64,000 nt of DNA from an uncultured delta proteobacterium (GTDB taxonomy: Bacteria > Desulfobacterota > Syntrophobacteria > Syntrophobacterales > Syntrophobacteraceae). Below are positions 17,286 to 25,382 of this stretch, one piece after another. The notes under the pieces were generated by a model. That model saw nothing but the letters and a program-made list of their open reading frames with translations. It ran no database searches and had not been told where the DNA came from. The stretch spans positions 1-64,000 of the forward strand of contig CAWEZA010000054.1 of NCBI GenBank assembly GCA_963813125.1, written 5' to 3'. The position numbers and the translations under genes were made by a program. The first letter of the stretch is position 1, and each line of letters opens with the position of its first letter.

Positions 17286-17585
17286 ATGAGAAAAGCATTG
17301 GTTGTCGCGATCGCTGTTTCACTGCTCCTTATCGGCGGCGGCTTTGCGACCGCACAGGCGAATGGCTCCTGCAACATCAACTGGTCCGCCCTGTCTCCCT
17401 GCAACTGGCACGCGCCCAACCTGTGCGCGTTCCATTGTGACGCGGTGGCCGCGGAGCCCACGCCTCCTGCTGCGGAAGTAACTCCACCGACGCAGGAAAA
17501 ATGTTCACTTTGCAACATCAACTGGTCCGCCCTATCTCCCTGCAACTGGCACTGGCCGCATTTTTGCCCGGTCTGTGGCAGCTAA
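17286..17585 (+). CDS. Secreted Cys-rich small protein with two near-identical tandem repeats (CNINWSALSPCNWH)
   Basis: The RBS is GGAAAGGAG. The signal peptide is MRKALVVAIAVSLLLIGGGFATAQA. The mature ~75-aa region has 10 Cys, and the two ~43-nt DNA repeats differ at one position. Confidence 0.5.
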   Translation: MRKALVVAIAVSLLLIGGGFATAQANGSCNINWSALSPCNWHAPNLCAFHCDAVAAEPTPPAAEVTPPTQEKCSLCNINWSALSPCNWHWPHFCPVCGS

Positions 17586-18862: not shown

Positions 18863-19249
18863 TTAAAACAACGGGTTATCGATACGCTTCAATTCCCGAA
18901 TATGGAGGCCGACGCTTTCATTGTTCAAAATGGCCACATTTTCAGCACGCCCCACAACGATAACTTTTGAGTTGGCGGATGGCGTCGTGCCACTGGTCAC
19001 TACCGCGATCTTACTGCCGTCATCACTTAAAAAGTAGAGCTTCAGGTTTACCAGAGGGATCTTGGTGATTCCCGAAACCGTTCCTCTTACCTTGACCTGC
19101 CTGCCGTCATACGCCGACGGGTTGTTCAAGATATCTTTTACGCTGGTGAACCCAAAAGGCAGGTACTGGCAGCCGGCGCTCACCAGCAGGAGTGAAAAGC
19201 TCAAGAACATGATGATTCCGCCTGTCCAGGCGAAAGCTTTCCGTTTCAT
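18863..19249 (-). CDS. Lipoprotein, possibly OB-fold (BOF/YgiW-like)
   Basis: The signal/lipobox is MKRKAFAWTGGIIMFLSFSLLLVSAGC, and GRQVKVRGTVS is an OB-fold-like segment. Confidence 0.45.
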   Translation of the reverse strand: MKRKAFAWTGGIIMFLSFSLLLVSAGCQYLPFGFTSVKDILNNPSAYDGRQVKVRGTVSGITKIPLVNLKLYFLSDDGSKIAVVTSGTTPSANSKVIVVGRAENVAILNNESVGLHIRELKRIDNPLF

Positions 19250-19472
19250 CCAACCCCCCATCCTGATCCGCCCCCGTGCGTTTCTACGTCTGGGGCTGAC
19301 CGTCCGTCCCGACCAGGCTACGACATTTATAATGATAGTAATCTAAATTTCCCCATTCACAAGTACCTGAAATTTCCAGGGGCGGCAATTCAAAATTGCC
19401 CGGGGAAAGCCACCCTGACCACTCGTAATAGGGGGCGTGGGGCAGAAAGATGGCGCTCAGGAACCTCGAAAA

Positions 19473-20027
19473 TCAGATCAGCATGATGATATCGACGATC
19501 ACCAAACCCGGAATGGCAACCAGAGCTAAATAATCTAGAAAAGCGCTCATCCAGCCTAAACGCTGAATCCAAAGCCCGCCGAGTATTCCGGCTCCATATC
19601 CGGGGAAAAGGCCTGCGAATCCGCAGAGCATCAGCTTCCACCCGGAGTGTGAAAAGCCGAGCCTGCCAAGCATCAAACCGGCGGTTACTCCCAGAAAAAC
19701 AAGAAATAGAAATATCTCTACCCTGAAGGATTCATACGTTGGAGGCGTGCCTGCCGACGATACGATGCTGTTGATAAGTAGGGCGACAAAAACGGCGCTC
19801 CCCAGGATGCCGAATATCCACCCGGAGATCGAGCCTTTCTCGCAGGCCGCCGTAAATCCCCACACGGCGGCGCCCACGGAAAGAAAGGTGACTATCGTGA
19901 ATTCCAAAGGGAGATGGCCGGCAAAAGGCGATCGGTATTTTTCCTCGCTCGGCCTTACGCGTCTCCACAGAAGGGAGGGGAAGAATTTAAGATGAAAATC
20001 AAAGGAGAGAAACTTCGGTGGGTTCAT
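19473..20027 (-). CDS. Hypothetical integral membrane protein
   Basis: A 184-aa ORF with ~5 hydrophobic helices. Confidence 0.45.
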   Translation of the reverse strand: MNPPKFLSFDFHLKFFPSLLWRRVRPSEEKYRSPFAGHLPLEFTIVTFLSVGAAVWGFTAACEKGSISGWIFGILGSAVFVALLINSIVSSAGTPPTYESFRVEIFLFLVFLGVTAGLMLGRLGFSHSGWKLMLCGFAGLFPGYGAGILGGLWIQRLGWMSAFLDYLALVAIPGLVIVDIIMLI

Positions 20028-20252
20028 ATGATCACGGATTCGATGGTATTTTGTTTATCGTCCATAAAGCCTCATTATATCGATACAAGTTTATTCCAAT
20101 TTGAAGTTCCGGGCAAATAGATTCCGGAGCAGGCCGGAGGGCGGATATCGCACCAACCGCGTTTGCGTGGTGCTCTTCGTTTTAGCGGGTACGGGGCGCC
20201 GTCGTATACCTGGACTGGGTACGCAGCCTGTGTTGCATCGTAAAACTTCATG

Positions 20253-20281
20253 TTGACTAATGCGCCTGCTTTCTTTAGTAT
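20253..20281 (+). promoter_or_regulatory. Sigma70-like promoter (TTGACT-N17-TAGTAT) upstream of the precursor peptide gene
   Basis: The -35 TTGACT is at 20253-20258, the spacer is 17 nt, and the -10 TAGTAT is at 20276-20281, ~65 nt upstream of the ATG. Confidence 0.55.
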
Positions 20282-20348
20282 TGTCAGGCGATTATGGTAT
20301 GGCGTGTGTGCTGTTATTTAAGGAAATTACAACAAAGAGGGAGACTTC

Positions 20349-20510
20349 ATGGAGATTAAAGAAAGAAGCGAAAGCGCGGGCGGGAACATGGTCCTCGAAA
20401 GCGAGTCTTACACTGTGATGTCTCTATGCGCCGGCTTGGCCGTTGCTGAGGTCGGCGACGGAAACTGTTTCTCCTGTGAAGGCTATATCACGGTTCCCTG
20501 CAGTTGCTGA
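20349..20510 (+). CDS. RiPP-like precursor peptide (53 aa, 5 Cys in the C-terminal half)
   Basis: The RBS is AAGAGGGAG, 5-8 nt before the ATG. The peptide is MEIKERSESAGGNMVLESESYTVMSLCAGLAVAEVGDGNCFSCEGYITVPCSC. It sits immediately upstream of two rSAM/SPASM genes. Confidence 0.6.
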   Translation: MEIKERSESAGGNMVLESESYTVMSLCAGLAVAEVGDGNCFSCEGYITVPCSC

Positions 20511-20632
20511 CGCCATGTAACGCAGTACCCGACCGATCTCCGGCAGGGCGGGATTGGGATGCCGTGCTGTTTGCTCTTCGAGCATGAGCAAGGCGCCATA
20601 TTTCATTACCAGAGCTGAGTAAGTGCACGGTC

Positions 20633-20676
20633 GGCGTGAGTCCTTCCAGTGTGGAGGACTCACGCCATCTCTTTTT
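20633..20676 (+). terminator. Intrinsic terminator/attenuator between the precursor and maturase genes
   Basis: GGCGTGAGTCCT-loop(TCCAGTGTGG)-AGGACTCACGCC followed by ATCTCTTTTT. Confidence 0.6.
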
Positions 20677-20785
20677 GCGTCTCCGATGGATTATCTCCAC
20701 GTATTCTCCGTCCGCTGCCTCAGGTAAATAAGAATAAAGGAAAGAAGAAACGGATTCTCACGGCCCCCTCGAGGTTACGAAGAAT

Positions 20786-22228
20786 TTGATAGAGTTGGAA
20801 CGCGGCGGCGATGAGTTGCTGCTTGTGAACTCTTTCCACATGCTTCCGCTATACGTGGCTCGCGGCAAAAAGGGTGTGAAGCGCGTACTCTCACAGGTCG
20901 GGGGCAAAACGTTTGAAGAGCTCCTGGCCTTATTCTCCGGGGACACGGACCTCATCCGAATGCTCAGGGACCATCGCATCCTTGTCGATTCCTCCCGCGA
21001 GAAGGAGCGGTGTGAGCGCACGGGCATCGACGCGGCTTTAGCCGCGCCACCTCTGCCCAAGAACAAGATGACCGTTTTCCTCCTGATTACTGAATCATGC
21101 AACCTTGGTTGTGTATATTGCCTTAACGGCTCGGGGACTTATCGCAAAAGCCCGGGCGCGCTCATGAGCCCCCAGGTCGCCATGCGCAGCATCACGGCGT
21201 GCCTGGATCAACTTGGCGCCGGCGGCACCCTTCAAGTGACCTTCTTTGGGGGCGAACCGCTCCTTAATTGGCCCCTTGTAAAAGAGGTGATAAAGCAATG
21301 CGAGCAATTACCCGGGCAGACGTATGGCGACAAGAAGATTGCATATCATATAACCAGCAATCTGACCACATGCCCTCCCGATCTGATCGAAACGCTAAAA
21401 AAGCATAAAATCACCGTCTTATCCGATATCGACGGGCCCCCGGAAATTCATAACCGTTGCCGTCCCTTTCTGCGCGGCGGAGCTTCTTATGCCCGGAGTG
21501 CGGAAACTATACGCAGGTTGGTAGACGCCGGAATACCGGTAGCTCTGCGCGCTACGCTTACTTCCGTCAATCAGGACTGCGTCGCTGATATTGCCGCCCA
21601 CCACAAGGCGCTCGGCGCCGGTAATTGCGGCCTTGTGCCGGTCTGCCAAATCAATTCCGATCGGCAATACCTGCCTGAGTGGCTTCTGCCCGATCCGGAC
21701 AGGATTATCGCCGGGGTGGTGAATGTATATCGCAGTGGATTATGGGAAAGGACGAAGCTCTTCCCGTTCAACCAATATGTTTTGAAATTGCGTCCCGGCT
21801 CGCGGCAGACTGTGGGCTGCGCGGCTCCCTCGGGCGCCGTTCCGGTCATCAACGCCAACGGAGACGTTTACCTGTGCGCCTATCTTGTCGGCCAGGAGAA
21901 GTTCCGCTATGGAACGTCGTCAAACGCATGGGACCGGCGGTTGCTCGAAGAAACGTCGGCCTCACTGCATGTCGATAATCTCCCGGGGTGTAGCGCATGT
22001 CCCTGGCGATACGCGTGCGGAGGTGGATGCCCGGTGATGAGACTGGGGTTTTACGAAGTGGAAAAAAACCCTGTGGCCGCGGAATATGGACGGAGAATCG
22101 TCTGCGATTTTAGCAGGGCAGTTTTGACCGAGTGTCTTTGGGACGTGGCGGACAATGTGTCGGCCTCCATTGCCGAGGGGCGGGGGCAACACCGTGGACC
22201 GGCGCTCGACCCAACGCTTTTTTGCTGA
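20786..22228 (+). CDS. Radical SAM/SPASM-domain peptide-modifying enzyme with an N-terminal RRE-like domain (paralog 1)
   Basis: The CX3CX2C motif is SCNLGCVYC. The C-terminal SPASM cysteines are CAAPSGAVPVINANGDVYLCAYL...GCSACPWRYACGGGCPVM. The N-terminal ~90 aa (LERGGDELLLVNSFHMLPLYV...TFEELLALF...ILVD) is PqqD/RRE-like. The only canonical start is a TTG with a GAGGT SD. Confidence 0.85.
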   Translation: MIELERGGDELLLVNSFHMLPLYVARGKKGVKRVLSQVGGKTFEELLALFSGDTDLIRMLRDHRILVDSSREKERCERTGIDAALAAPPLPKNKMTVFLLITESCNLGCVYCLNGSGTYRKSPGALMSPQVAMRSITACLDQLGAGGTLQVTFFGGEPLLNWPLVKEVIKQCEQLPGQTYGDKKIAYHITSNLTTCPPDLIETLKKHKITVLSDIDGPPEIHNRCRPFLRGGASYARSAETIRRLVDAGIPVALRATLTSVNQDCVADIAAHHKALGAGNCGLVPVCQINSDRQYLPEWLLPDPDRIIAGVVNVYRSGLWERTKLFPFNQYVLKLRPGSRQTVGCAAPSGAVPVINANGDVYLCAYLVGQEKFRYGTSSNAWDRRLLEETSASLHVDNLPGCSACPWRYACGGGCPVMRLGFYEVEKNPVAAEYGRRIVCDFSRAVLTECLWDVADNVSASIAEGRGQHRGPALDPTLFC

Positions 22229-22274
22229 AACAAAAGAGGAGTTCCCCTTCTCGGACTCTGCATCGGGGTACCCC

Positions 22275-23714
22275 ATGAGGGCTCAAGTGTTGCTCGAATT
22301 GACCAAAAACCTGATCTCCCTGGAAAGGGGCCGCGACGAGTTGCTCCTGGCAAACTCGTTCCACATGATGCCTCTATATGTTAAGCGGGGCAGGGAGCGT
22401 ATAAAGGGCGTGCTCGACCATGCATCCGGCGGACGCACGGCAGAAGAGTTGGAAGCGGCATTTCCGGGGGATGTCGGCCTCATCGAGCTCCTTCGCGATA
22501 ATCGCATTTTGGTCGACAAGTCATTTTACCCCGACGGGTTCGATCTCGCAGATATCGCGGCGGAAAAGATCCAGTCCGGCCCCCGGGAGAGGATCACGCT
22601 TTATCTGCTGCTTGGCGAATCCTGCAACCTGGACTGCATCTACTGCCTGAACGGACCCAAGACATACCGGAAAAATCACGCAGAGGGGATGGGCGCGCGG
22701 ACTGCCCTGAGAAGCATCGAGAAATGCCTGGAGGAACTCGTTCCCGGAGGCGTGGTGGAAGTCGGTTTTTTCGGGGGCGAGCCTTTACTTCACTGGCCGG
22801 TGGTCAAGCAGGTGATAAGCCGTTGCGAAAGTGAGATCGGGCCGGCAAACCCCGATAAAAAAATACGATATCACCTTACCAGCAATCTGACACTGTGTCC
22901 ACCAGACCTGGTCGAATGGGTGACACGCTACAAGATTACAATAGTCTGCGGGATCGACGGTCCACCGGAGATTCACGACCGATGCCGGGTCTACCGCGGA
23001 GGCGCCCCGTCTCATGCGCGCAGCGCGGACACTATACGCCGGCTTGTGCAGGCCGGAGTACACCCCACCTTGAGGGCAACGATCACTTCAGCCAACCATG
23101 ACCGGTTGCACGAAGTAGCTGCGCACCACACCCTGCTTGGAGCCGCCGCCTCGCTGTTTATCCCGGTACGCCCCATTAATTCGGACAGCGAGTTTTTCCC
23201 GGAACAGATCCTGCCCGACCCGGAAAAAATCATTTGCGCCGCAGTCGAACTCGGTCTCGGCGATTCTTCGGGCAAGGCAAACCTATTTCCCTTCAATGAT
23301 TTTTCAGCCGATTTACGCCCCGGCGCCCGATATGTAGTCGCCTGCGGCGCTCCCCGGGGGGCCACTTACGTGGTGCGGCCCAACGGCGACATTTATCCCT
23401 GCATCTATCTCGTCGGCCAGAAACAGTACAGGCTCGGAAATGTGACCGGCATGCTGGATCGTAGGCCCCTTGAAGAAATGTTTACCGCTTTACACGTGGA
23501 TAACCGCGAAGATTGCCGGACTTGCGCCTGGCGGTATGCTTGCGGCGGCGGCTGCCCGGTCATGAATCTTGCGCGCATAGGCGGCGCCGAGAAGAGCGCC
23601 CGTGTGGTGGAGTACAGCCGCAGGATCACCTGCGACCTGAGCCGGGCGATCCTTTCCGACGCCCTCTGGCGTCTCGCCGACCGGGGCTTAAGCGGAGTTG
23701 CCGGACAAGTTTGA
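22275..23714 (+). CDS. Radical SAM/SPASM-domain peptide-modifying enzyme with an N-terminal RRE-like domain (paralog 2)
   Basis: GESCNLDCIYCLNG, CGAPRGATYVVRPNGDIYPCIYL, and CRTCAWRYACGGGCPVM. It is ~45% identical to paralog 1 over its full length. Confidence 0.85.
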   Translation: MRAQVLLELTKNLISLERGRDELLLANSFHMMPLYVKRGRERIKGVLDHASGGRTAEELEAAFPGDVGLIELLRDNRILVDKSFYPDGFDLADIAAEKIQSGPRERITLYLLLGESCNLDCIYCLNGPKTYRKNHAEGMGARTALRSIEKCLEELVPGGVVEVGFFGGEPLLHWPVVKQVISRCESEIGPANPDKKIRYHLTSNLTLCPPDLVEWVTRYKITIVCGIDGPPEIHDRCRVYRGGAPSHARSADTIRRLVQAGVHPTLRATITSANHDRLHEVAAHHTLLGAAASLFIPVRPINSDSEFFPEQILPDPEKIICAAVELGLGDSSGKANLFPFNDFSADLRPGARYVVACGAPRGATYVVRPNGDIYPCIYLVGQKQYRLGNVTGMLDRRPLEEMFTALHVDNREDCRTCAWRYACGGGCPVMNLARIGGAEKSARVVEYSRRITCDLSRAILSDALWRLADRGLSGVAGQV

Positions 23715-23847
23715 CATCGGCCGCAGCATAAACCTCTAACCTGGAACGGAAGGAGGAATTATGGGGAGCGCTTGGTAATACGAGCCCCGTCACATCATGG
23801 AAGGACGGGGCCTTTGTTCCCGCGGGACTTTTGCGGGCAGTTGAGAG

Positions 23848-25122
23848 TTACTTTCGTTTTACAGGGGCCCCTGATGCCGGCGAAGAACCTTTTAGCCATT
23901 CGCTGACGAAATCATTCAAACTTGAGGGGAGCCACCACAGCGATAAGGTGCTTGGCAGCTTGCCGTCAGTCTTTTGTCCGAAATTTCTCAGGGCATCGGC
24001 TGCGGCCAGCGCCTGAATGGTTCCCGTATAAGGGCTGAGACTCTGAGCAATGGCCTGGTCCTGGGAAGCGATGTAGCGCCGATTTATGGCGCTCTGTACT
24101 TCGGGGTCGAATTGAAAGGTATCGGCCCAACCTATGTAATCGAGGGTAACGCCGACCGAATCTAGATAAGCGGTCAGTTTTTTCTGGACATCCGCCATAA
24201 TCTGCCCCGCGGCACCATTGTCCTGGTCAAAGGTGCGGCTGGTAAACTCTTCACCGAGCAGGGCCTGCACCTTGTCCCTCACCACCCCGTCCATCACCTC
24301 CGTGAGACTGTGGCCGTAATAGACAGAGGTAAAGATTACTTCCGGTCTGGTACGGTTGCCGACTGGAGGCTTTATGCCGAAGCGATACAGAAATTTGGGG
24401 GCGTTATCTTCCGATACGGATGCAGCGATGGAAACGCCGACTGTGATGTTTAGCCCCTCTTTGCTCTGCACGGGAAAACCTTCGTTTCTGCTGGAAGTCC
24501 CACGGTTTGATTCGGTAACCCACTCACGGTTATACGGTGTGCGGTCGACAATAATCAGACGTCCACCCGGAACATAGTAGTCCTTCCAAAAAGCTGAGTT
24601 TTCCAGTTTGACGTGAGGAATGACGAATCGCTTGGCCGCGATTTTATGTTCCCGCAGATATTCCTCCGATTGGAACGAGGCCTGGCCGTTTTTGTTGTTC
24701 CCCACATCGGGAATAAAGAAGGCCGACTCATTCGGAAGAATAAAGAACGGCTCGGCGTAATCGGACTGGTTGTAGTAGGCATAGCAGGAGGTGCTCGCCG
24801 TGAGTACGGTCAGCAGCACCAGCGGGACCAGACCCGACTTGATGAAAGACCGCAGCGGTTTCCACCAGATCAGAGCAATGATGGCCAAAAGAACAAGAGC
24901 CGGGACACCGAGGTGTTTGAAGAAATCCATTCCAAACTGCGACGTGACATAGGCCATGTCGCTGTTCTCGAACTGTTTGGCGGCCATCTTACCCGCACCC
25001 AGAAGGGCCATAGAGTTGAGAAGGTAGTTGATCCAACCGTAAATCATAATGGATGCCACGGTAAGAACCCCGCGTATGATATAACCGCGGCCTCCATTGT
25101 TCTCCAAATCATCAAAACCCAT
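23848..25122 (-). CDS. SPFH/band-7-like membrane protein
   Basis: The RBS is AAAAGGAGAAAA. There are ~3 N-terminal TM helices. The C-terminal region VRDKVQALLGEEFTSRT...VTLDYIGWADTFQFDPEVQSAINRRYIASQDQ fits an SPFH domain pattern. Confidence 0.55.
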   Translation of the reverse strand: MGFDDLENNGGRGYIIRGVLTVASIMIYGWINYLLNSMALLGAGKMAAKQFENSDMAYVTSQFGMDFFKHLGVPALVLLAIIALIWWKPLRSFIKSGLVPLVLLTVLTASTSCYAYYNQSDYAEPFFILPNESAFFIPDVGNNKNGQASFQSEEYLREHKIAAKRFVIPHVKLENSAFWKDYYVPGGRLIIVDRTPYNREWVTESNRGTSSRNEGFPVQSKEGLNITVGVSIAASVSEDNAPKFLYRFGIKPPVGNRTRPEVIFTSVYYGHSLTEVMDGVVRDKVQALLGEEFTSRTFDQDNGAAGQIMADVQKKLTAYLDSVGVTLDYIGWADTFQFDPEVQSAINRRYIASQDQAIAQSLSPYTGTIQALAAADALRNFGQKTDGKLPSTLSLWWLPSSLNDFVSEWLKGSSPASGAPVKRK

Positions 25123-25382
25123 GCTTTTTTCTCCTTTTATTGAGCAGTCCAATCTAATTGGCTCGAAAATAAACAAATCGCTACTCCTTATAAATTCGGA
25201 TGGTACTCGCCATCATATCAATAAAATAAATGGATCCGCTCTTCCTTCTTCATGCCAATCCCTAATCCGTGAGTAAAATCCACGAGGGTCACTGAAAATC
25301 CCCAGGTGAGAGCAGGGGAGTAGCCTGCCAAGGGTTTAGGCATAGTGATCCAGTGGTTCACCGAGGGGGGAAGGCCCCGAAG

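Follow-up and report, generated by a model that had tools for sequence, protein, structure and literature searches.

CteB, the SCIFF/ranthipeptide maturase of Clostridium thermocellum, combines a winged-helix RiPP (peptide made by ribosomes and then modified post-translationally) recognition element (RRE), a radical S-adenosylmethionine (SAM) core and a SPASM region (5WGG, 5WHY). Other described systems, namely TrnC/TrnD of thuricin CD and RumMC1/RumMC2 of ruminococcin C, carry two paralogous radical SAM/SPASM enzymes side by side. TrnC and TrnD associate into a complex and work jointly (PMC12093266), and two radical SAM enzymes take part in the biosynthesis of RumC (PMC8188230). Here, a 64,000-nt stretch of DNA from an uncultured delta proteobacterium of the Syntrophobacteraceae (contig CAWEZA010000054.1; hereafter, the whole stretch is called the window) was analyzed. 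It holds a radical SAM/SPASM maturase gene, rSAM1, and its downstream paralog, rSAM2. rSAM1 shows the same three-part architecture as CteB and likewise lies beside a gene for a short Cys-rich precursor, while the side-by-side maturases resemble those of the thuricin CD and ruminococcin C systems. The ancestral start codon of rSAM1 has been destroyed by the loss of one base, and translation of the gene now appears to begin at a TTG codon located 16 codons further downstream.

The comparison was based on ortholog DNA, which was retrieved for the matches from a protein database search and aligned across the start regions. The related loci, denoted by L numbers, came from Syntrophobacter, Syntrophobacteraceae, Rhodoplanes-like and other metagenome-assembled genomes, and from metagenomes. 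The rSAM1 proteins of L001, L002 and L026 were 80%, 77% and 67% identical to that of the window, respectively. L005 was a Logan assembly of run ERR11563597 spanning window positions 19088–25229, and L008 represented a sister lineage from another sample (ENA ERZ19051573), the rSAM1 of which was 91% identical to that of the window at the amino acid level. A scan of species-representative genome contigs yielded two loci only, both of which were distant. The features on which the argument turns are as follows.

20786–22228, + strand: rSAM1, a 480-amino-acid radical SAM/SPASM peptide maturase with a predicted N-terminal RRE, recognized by its PF04055 match and its likeness to CteB
22275–23714, + strand: rSAM2, a 479-amino-acid radical SAM/SPASM maturase with an ATG start, MRAQVLLELTKNL
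20738–20785, + strand: 16 orphaned N-terminal codons, in frame and stop-free, without a canonical start
20736–20744, + strand: site of the ancestral GTG start, located by comparing the DNA of L001, L002 and L026 with that of the window, L005 and L008
20771–20775, + strand: Shine-Dalgarno-like GAGGT for the TTG at 20786, formed by ancestral Glu-Val codons

Direct reading of the window gave a TAA at 20735–20737, followed by 16 in-frame codons (AGG AAA GAA GAA ACG GAT TCT CAC GGC CCC CTC GAG GTT ACG AAG AAT) and then by the TTG at 20786. The orphaned codons encode RKEETDSHGPLEVTKN, and the Leu encoded by the TTG comes next. An earlier note on this DNA had stated that these 48 bases contain no ATG, GTG or TTG, and the direct reading agreed; no in-frame ATN or CTG codon was found in 20738–20785 either. 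The same note had held that the segment encodes residues homologous to the paralog. This was borne out by BLASTP with the extended translation as the query, in which the alignment of rSAM1 and rSAM2 started six codons upstream of the TTG, at LEVTKNL and LELTKNL. Since L11, T14 and N16, all of which lie upstream of the TTG, were invariant in 29 orthologs, the upstream homology is not a matter of chance.

The ortholog DNA accounted for the missing start. At 20736–20744 the window has AAAG-GAAAG and the orthologs have AAAGTGAAAG, with a T absent from the window between 20739 and 20740. In a longer view, the orthologs read AAAGTGAAAGAA with a GTG start and the window AAAG-GAAAGAA; for L001, L002 and L026, the sequence was AA(A/G)GTGAAAGA, with GTG as the start, against AAAG-GAAAGA. 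The aligned start regions were as follows.

Window: AAGAATAAAG-GAAAGAAGAAACGGATTCT
L001: AATAATAAAGTGAAAGAAGAAACGGATTCT
L002: AAGAACAAGGTGAAAGAA---ACGGATTCT
L026: CGCGCAGGGTGAAAGAG---ACGGATTCT

The loss of the T leaves the codon AGG at 20738–20740 directly after the TAA, and the old Shine-Dalgarno sequence is weakened as well, from AGGGAAAT in L001 and L002 to AGGTAAAT in the window. In L001 and L026, the GTG was the sole canonical start upstream of the conserved motif NLIxLERG. Across approximately 20 orthologous loci, the ATG or GTG of rSAM1 was always located 11–15 codons before the N of this motif, and only the window and L005 had no ATG or GTG before it. In the protein database search, the window protein as called comprised 480 amino acids from the TTG, while many orthologs comprised 491–497 amino acids and began with M/V-K-E-(E)-T-D-S. 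The earlier note had offered an upstream indel, a shortened protein from the TTG and a non-canonical start as alternatives. The indel proved correct, as the ancestral GTG has lost its T, a single base, relative to the orthologs; between the TTG and a non-canonical start, the TTG was favored by inference. The note had also allowed that orthologs starting at the position equivalent to 20786 would make the case unremarkable, and none of the approximately 20 loci did so.

The T loss was also found outside the window. L005 was 99.84% identical to the window, with 9 single-nucleotide polymorphisms (SNPs) and 1 indel, and its start site had the same T-less sequence. L008 was T-less as well (AAGGAAAGAAGAAACG), in a genomic neighborhood wholly unlike that of the window. 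Because L005 and L008 share this state, the T loss appears to be real and fairly old, and not an assembly error. Almost no weight was given to the alternative that the T was dropped in sequencing or assembly and that GTG is the real start. In its favor, assembly errors commonly take the form of single-base indels, and the local sequence is rich in A. However, L005 carried the identical sequence while differing from the window at 10 other positions, L008 came from a different sample and genomic context, and the site of the loss is not a homopolymer. From these sequences, an assembly error was judged very unlikely to be the cause of the missing T.

In L008, a 148-nt intergenic deletion corresponding to window positions 20589–20736 joins GAGCATGAG to AAGGAAAG. 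The deletion takes out the old Shine-Dalgarno sequence together with a hairpin (described below), and a new in-frame start, ATG AGA AGG AAA GAA GAA ACG (MRRKEETDS), is present, the ATG of which lies two codons upstream of the orphaned codons. The most parsimonious history would comprise 2 events, in which the common ancestor lost the T and the deletion later gave L008 its ATG. A history of independent events needs 3 events and a non-functional intermediate.

The TTG at 20786 was the sole canonical start from the lost GTG up to the catalytic domain. The earlier note had placed a GAGGT 10 nt upstream of it, and this sequence was located at 20771–20775. When Shine-Dalgarno strength was expressed as the energy of the duplex with the anti-Shine-Dalgarno sequence, GAGGT gave −6.6 kcal/mol with a spacer of 9–10 nt. 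This was at least equal to the sequences serving the ancestral GTG, which gave −5.9 kcal/mol in L001 and −5.1 kcal/mol in L002 with a spacer of 11 nt. The TTG (Leu) and the GAGGT (Glu-Val) are by-products of the ancestral coding sequence, and both were already present in L001; the GAGGT bases were not found in L008 or L002. Because more distant orthologs have CTG or CTC for the same Leu, the TTG as a fallback start is specific to this clade. In E. coli, UUG initiates at 10–100% of AUG (bioRxiv 10.1101/063800). Taken together, we consider it fairly probable that rSAM1 is now translated from TTG 20786.

The proposed course of events is as follows. A one-base deletion at 20739/20740 would have taken the T of the ancestral GTG of rSAM1 before the split from L008. 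Initiation would then have moved to the pre-existing in-frame TTG at 20786, where the Glu-Val codons containing GAGGT, 10 nt on the 5' side, would happen to serve as the Shine-Dalgarno site. The TTG-started protein would be 16 residues shorter, lacking about 10 poorly ordered or variable residues and the short conserved segment LxVTxN, and would keep the three-strand, three-helix RRE (from residue 17) and the whole catalytic part. In the L008 lineage, the 148-nt intergenic deletion would have supplied an in-frame ATG instead.

Other candidates for the start were tried and rejected. ATA 20734 is out of frame. ACG 20750 aligns with the Met of rSAM2 and was considered as a mutated ancestral ATG, but the ortholog GTG lies four codons further upstream. 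Translational coupling through a frame-3 open reading frame (ORF) at 20649–20789, the TGA of which overlaps the TTG (TTGA), was dismissed because this ORF lacks a Shine-Dalgarno sequence and its start falls within the terminator hairpin. For a programmed −1 slip at A_AAG (20741–20744), from frame 3 into the frame of the gene, no initiator further upstream was plausible, and L008 has lost the region; this candidate was dropped as well.

The architecture of rSAM1 indicates what the shorter protein would retain. The AlphaFold2 model of rSAM1 was built on 29 orthologs and had a mean predicted local distance difference test (pLDDT) score of 74.5. Residues 1–6 were disordered, residues 11–13 formed a short strand, and residues 11–20 had a mean pLDDT of 93. 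Strands at 17–22, 26–31 and 36–40 and helices at 44–53, 59–65 and 67–78 followed (pLDDT 85–93), and the model predicts this N-terminal domain to be a winged-helix RRE that binds the leader. Because the first canonical strand of the model begins at residue 17, the residue that opens β1 is the one encoded by the TTG. Certain rSAM2 orthologs naturally start as MTENLI, just three residues ahead of the motif. Both maturases exceeded the PF04055 cut-off of 29.5 bits, scoring 67 and 55 bits, and the radical SAM motif CxxxCxxC reads CNLGCVYC in rSAM1 and CNLDCIYC in rSAM2. In the alignment of 29 orthologs in which rSAM1 invariance was scored, C121, C125 and C128 were invariant, as were C361, C380, C418, C421, C427, C431 and C456, the cysteines of the SPASM/auxiliary Fe-S region. 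rSAM1 aligned to CteB through the SPASM region (residues 114–440). CteB was the closest solved relative by sequence (5WGG, E = 1e-23) and also by fold, as Foldseek matched 5WGG/5WHY (E ~1e-16) and also TigE (8VPO) over the full length (475–491 columns). The best NCBIfam matches were all far under their equivalog cut-offs, namely PapB (NF047865; 155/162 bits vs 340), nif11 rSAM (TIGR04064; 148/158 bits vs 518.7) and the SCIFF maturase (TIGR03974; 130/145 bits vs 425).

Selection on rSAM1 was evaluated from the coding changes, which were polarized with L001 and L002 as outgroups. The comparison of the window with L008 gave a dS of 0.20, a dN of 0.043 and an omega of 0.21. On the window branch, 19 synonymous and 14 non-synonymous changes were counted (omega 0.24), which differed from the neutral expectation of 3.1:1 (binomial P = 4e-5); the L008 branch had 25 and 23 changes, respectively. 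Window rSAM1 showed no private deviations at the columns invariant in the other 28 orthologs, while other family members showed 0–6 at their corresponding columns. Between the window and L005, three SNPs were found in rSAM1, all synonymous. As a pseudogene, rSAM1 would be atypical: the ORF is intact, omega is 0.24, the invariant residues are kept, and the start codon alone is lost. Judged from these changes, rSAM1 does not look dead, and its evolution resembles that of a functional gene. Provided that the deletion is ancestral, which parsimony favors, selection has kept the ORF since the start was lost, and rSAM1 must therefore still be translated.

rSAM2 had the features of an ordinary maturase of this type. 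It matched PF04055 and TIGR04085 (58.8 bits, cut-off 27), and its PF13186 score of 20.8 bits was just under the cut-off of 21.5. Its likely start, ATG 22275, agreed with the orthologs, and window rSAM2 had no private deviations at the 125 columns invariant across 25 aligned rSAM2 sequences. The ATG is served by GGGG(T) at 22265–22269. A strong Shine-Dalgarno-like AAGAGGAG was also noticed at 22234–22241 (+ strand), immediately behind the stop codon of rSAM1, but none of ATG, GTG and TTG lies 5–12 nt downstream of it. In L089, protein P0054 was considered as an N-terminally short rSAM2; this was rejected as a choice of the gene caller, since a normal ATG (MSAQVRLELTKNL) is present.

The two maturases were less divergent than the earlier note had estimated (~45% identity), being 53% identical over 471 residues by BLASTP. 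Its description of them as tandem-duplicated was misleading, as the pair is old, widely conserved and of different histories. Because rSAM2 followed rSAM1 in 20 of the 23 related loci with enough downstream sequence, the pair is an old conserved one and not a recent local duplication. rSAM2 was missing only from L028 (more distant, 45% identical), L008 and L001. L008 keeps only the first ~17 codons of rSAM2 (MRAQTVLESTKNQISLE; L008 6536–6725), followed by unrelated DNA and a Peptidase_U32 gene, and L001 has a response regulator gene in place of rSAM2. In L005, rSAM2 is frameshifted by the absence of one T of TTT at L005 3696 (window 22784), giving pieces of 206 and 300 amino acids. The window cluster was also mosaic. 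Its rSAM1 was of the L001/L002 type along its whole length (76–80% identity), while its rSAM2 was of the L089/L011/L006 type along its whole length (85/85/78% identity), and the rSAM1 of these last three loci was only 63–64% identical to that of the window. As the pattern holds along each whole gene, the mosaic junction lies between rSAM1 and rSAM2. Within window positions 19000–25300, none of the genes flanking the cluster recurred in any related locus, not even in L008; thus, the genomic context of the cluster differs from genome to genome. An additional radical SAM gene upstream and an ABC transporter are present in L002–L004 but not in the window.

The region upstream of rSAM1 contained two further features.

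20349–20510, + strand: precursor peptide gene (53 amino acids, MEIKERSESAGGNMVLESESYTVMSLCAGLAVAEVGDGNCFSCEGYITVPCSC), a conserved small ORF upstream of rSAM1
20633–20676, + strand: terminator-like hairpin with a 14-bp stem (9 G-C) followed by a T run, found by a terminator scan and present in the minimum-free-energy fold

The precursor gene lies ~270 nt upstream of rSAM1, and homologs were found beside rSAM1 in about 20 related loci, with the leader motif LExExYT[IV]xSLC and the core motif CCxxCPxYTTVPCxC. Its start has the Shine-Dalgarno sequence AGAGGGAG (−8.5 kcal/mol). The precursor matched no Pfam or NCBIfam model, and the core motif YTTVPC turned up in no paper of the library searched. 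Within the clade that the window forms with L001 and L008, the core reads C[F/L]xCEGYITVPCxC, with one Cys and one Thr fewer than the consensus; in the window and in L008, the precursor additionally carries a deletion of 4 residues. This core change and the rSAM2 losses fall in one clade and involve three lineages, which is circumstantial evidence that the two maturases may divide the labor and that the target of rSAM2 may be gone; to the same extent, it speaks for the sequential or regiospecific crosslinking that the earlier note had suggested. In L089, the precursor gene is divergently oriented, on the opposite strand. The hairpin between the precursor gene and rSAM1 is likely an attenuator; it could attenuate read-through and thereby yield more precursor than enzyme. 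It was absent from L008, where the 148-nt deletion takes it out. No known RNA family was detected when the whole window was scanned against Rfam.

Elsewhere in the window, 17286–17585 (+ strand) encodes a small protein rich in Cys and Trp, which is apparently secreted, as its N-terminus, MRKALVVAIAVSLLLIGGGFATAQA, resembles a signal peptide. The protein contains two exact copies of CNINWSALSPCNWH, encoded at 17370–17411 and 17511–17552 by DNA differing in one base. It matched no Pfam family, and its only NCBIfam match was weak and far below the threshold.

Several points weigh against the inferred initiation at TTG 20786. No ortholog among the approximately 20 loci starts at its equivalent, and a protein started there would drop L11, T14 and N16 and turn L17 into fMet, all four being invariant in the 29 orthologs. 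The argument from selection assumes that the deletion is common to L008, which is parsimonious (2 events vs 3) but not proven. The frameshift of rSAM2 in L005 and its deletion in L008 are readable as decay of the cluster. Finally, the 48 orphaned bases are free of stops and indels, with one synonymous change on the window branch. As 1 change was found against 2.6 expected under neutrality (P = 0.26; too few sites), their conservation fits ongoing translation as well as too little elapsed time. In a rather unlikely alternative, the full-length N-terminus is still made by weak non-canonical in-frame initiation upstream, with ACG 20750 as the best candidate and AGG 20738 as a weaker one; such initiation could coexist with that at the TTG. 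The deletion itself created AAGGA 7–8 nt before ACG 20750 (−5.6 kcal/mol at spacer 7), the 16 codons are open with L11, T14 and N16 intact and the sole window-branch change synonymous, and ACG-initiated GFP has been confirmed by mass spectrometry in E. coli (10.1101/063800). However, non-canonical codons such as ACG and AGG initiate at only ~0.1–1% of AUG in E. coli (10.1101/063800), the test of orphan-codon conservation is powerless, and in-frame codons of the ATN or CTG type are absent. That the sister lineage fixed a canonical ATG also suggests that the non-canonical state was inadequate. If full-length rSAM1 were nonetheless made from ACG or AGG, the locus may be a natural case of functional non-canonical initiation.

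The possibility that rSAM1 is a young pseudogene or silent, with rSAM2 alone or nothing maturing the peptide in a decaying cluster, was judged unlikely. Both the start codon and the ancestral Shine-Dalgarno sequence are damaged, rSAM2 is deleted, frameshifted or absent within the clade (L008, L005 and L001, respectively), and the precursor has lost one Cys and one Thr from its core and four residues relative to L001 and L002. Nevertheless, an ORF of at least 480 codons is intact, and the window-branch omega, the absence of private deviations at invariant columns and the exclusively synonymous SNPs against L005 all speak for constraint. Moreover, since rSAM1 is the one maturase left in L008 and L001, it is the indispensable partner in this clade. 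Little weight was given to a further reading, in which the clipped rSAM1 has a weakened leader-binding domain and depends on rSAM2 in a TrnC/TrnD-like complex, with the intact RRE of rSAM2 delivering the peptide. If this reading were true, the window would be an intermediate in which once-independent maturases are now obligate partners, and the sister lineage, having regained a full-length start, would then have been free to delete rSAM2. Translation of rSAM1 from TTG 20786 was preferred to these readings.

For annotation, the 480-amino-acid TTG call is the best available model of rSAM1, but it is derived and truncated; orthologs should not be shortened to fit it. In evolutionary terms, the locus is a small example of one start loss with two outcomes, apparently an internal TTG in the window and an ATG by a 148-nt deletion in L008, and that both are visible in two sister lineages is neat and unsurprising. 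As regards natural products, the cluster represents a RiPP family that is widespread, has no family model and occurs in Syntrophobacteraceae and other anaerobes. The loss of the core Cys and Thr alongside that of rSAM2 in one clade gives a testable hint as to which enzyme makes which crosslink. The case has no bearing on a long-standing open question; the T loss is an ordinary mutation in an uncharacterized but unexceptional peptide gene cluster, and it is the same in kind as bacterial start losses in general that are met by a downstream in-frame start or a gained start.

Compared with known systems, the cluster is closest to that of CteB. By analogy, the likely mechanism would involve leader binding by the RRE and hydrogen abstraction by a 5'-deoxyadenosyl radical, and the window system probably forms Cys-derived thioethers, as in ranthipeptides or sactipeptides, to judge by the sequence similarity of its enzymes to thioether-forming ones and by a core rich in Cys and Thr. 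It differs from the CteB, PapB and SCIFF systems in that its maturases score below every equivalog cut-off, its precursor fits no known model, and it has two maturases instead of one. In the latter respect, it is like TrnC/TrnD and RumMC1/RumMC2. Those systems have two or more precursors, whereas a single precursor gene was seen in the window. Unlike TrnC/TrnD and RumMC1/RumMC2, the pair found in the window has been broken up in close relatives, L001 and L008, where rSAM2 was lost and rSAM1 was kept.

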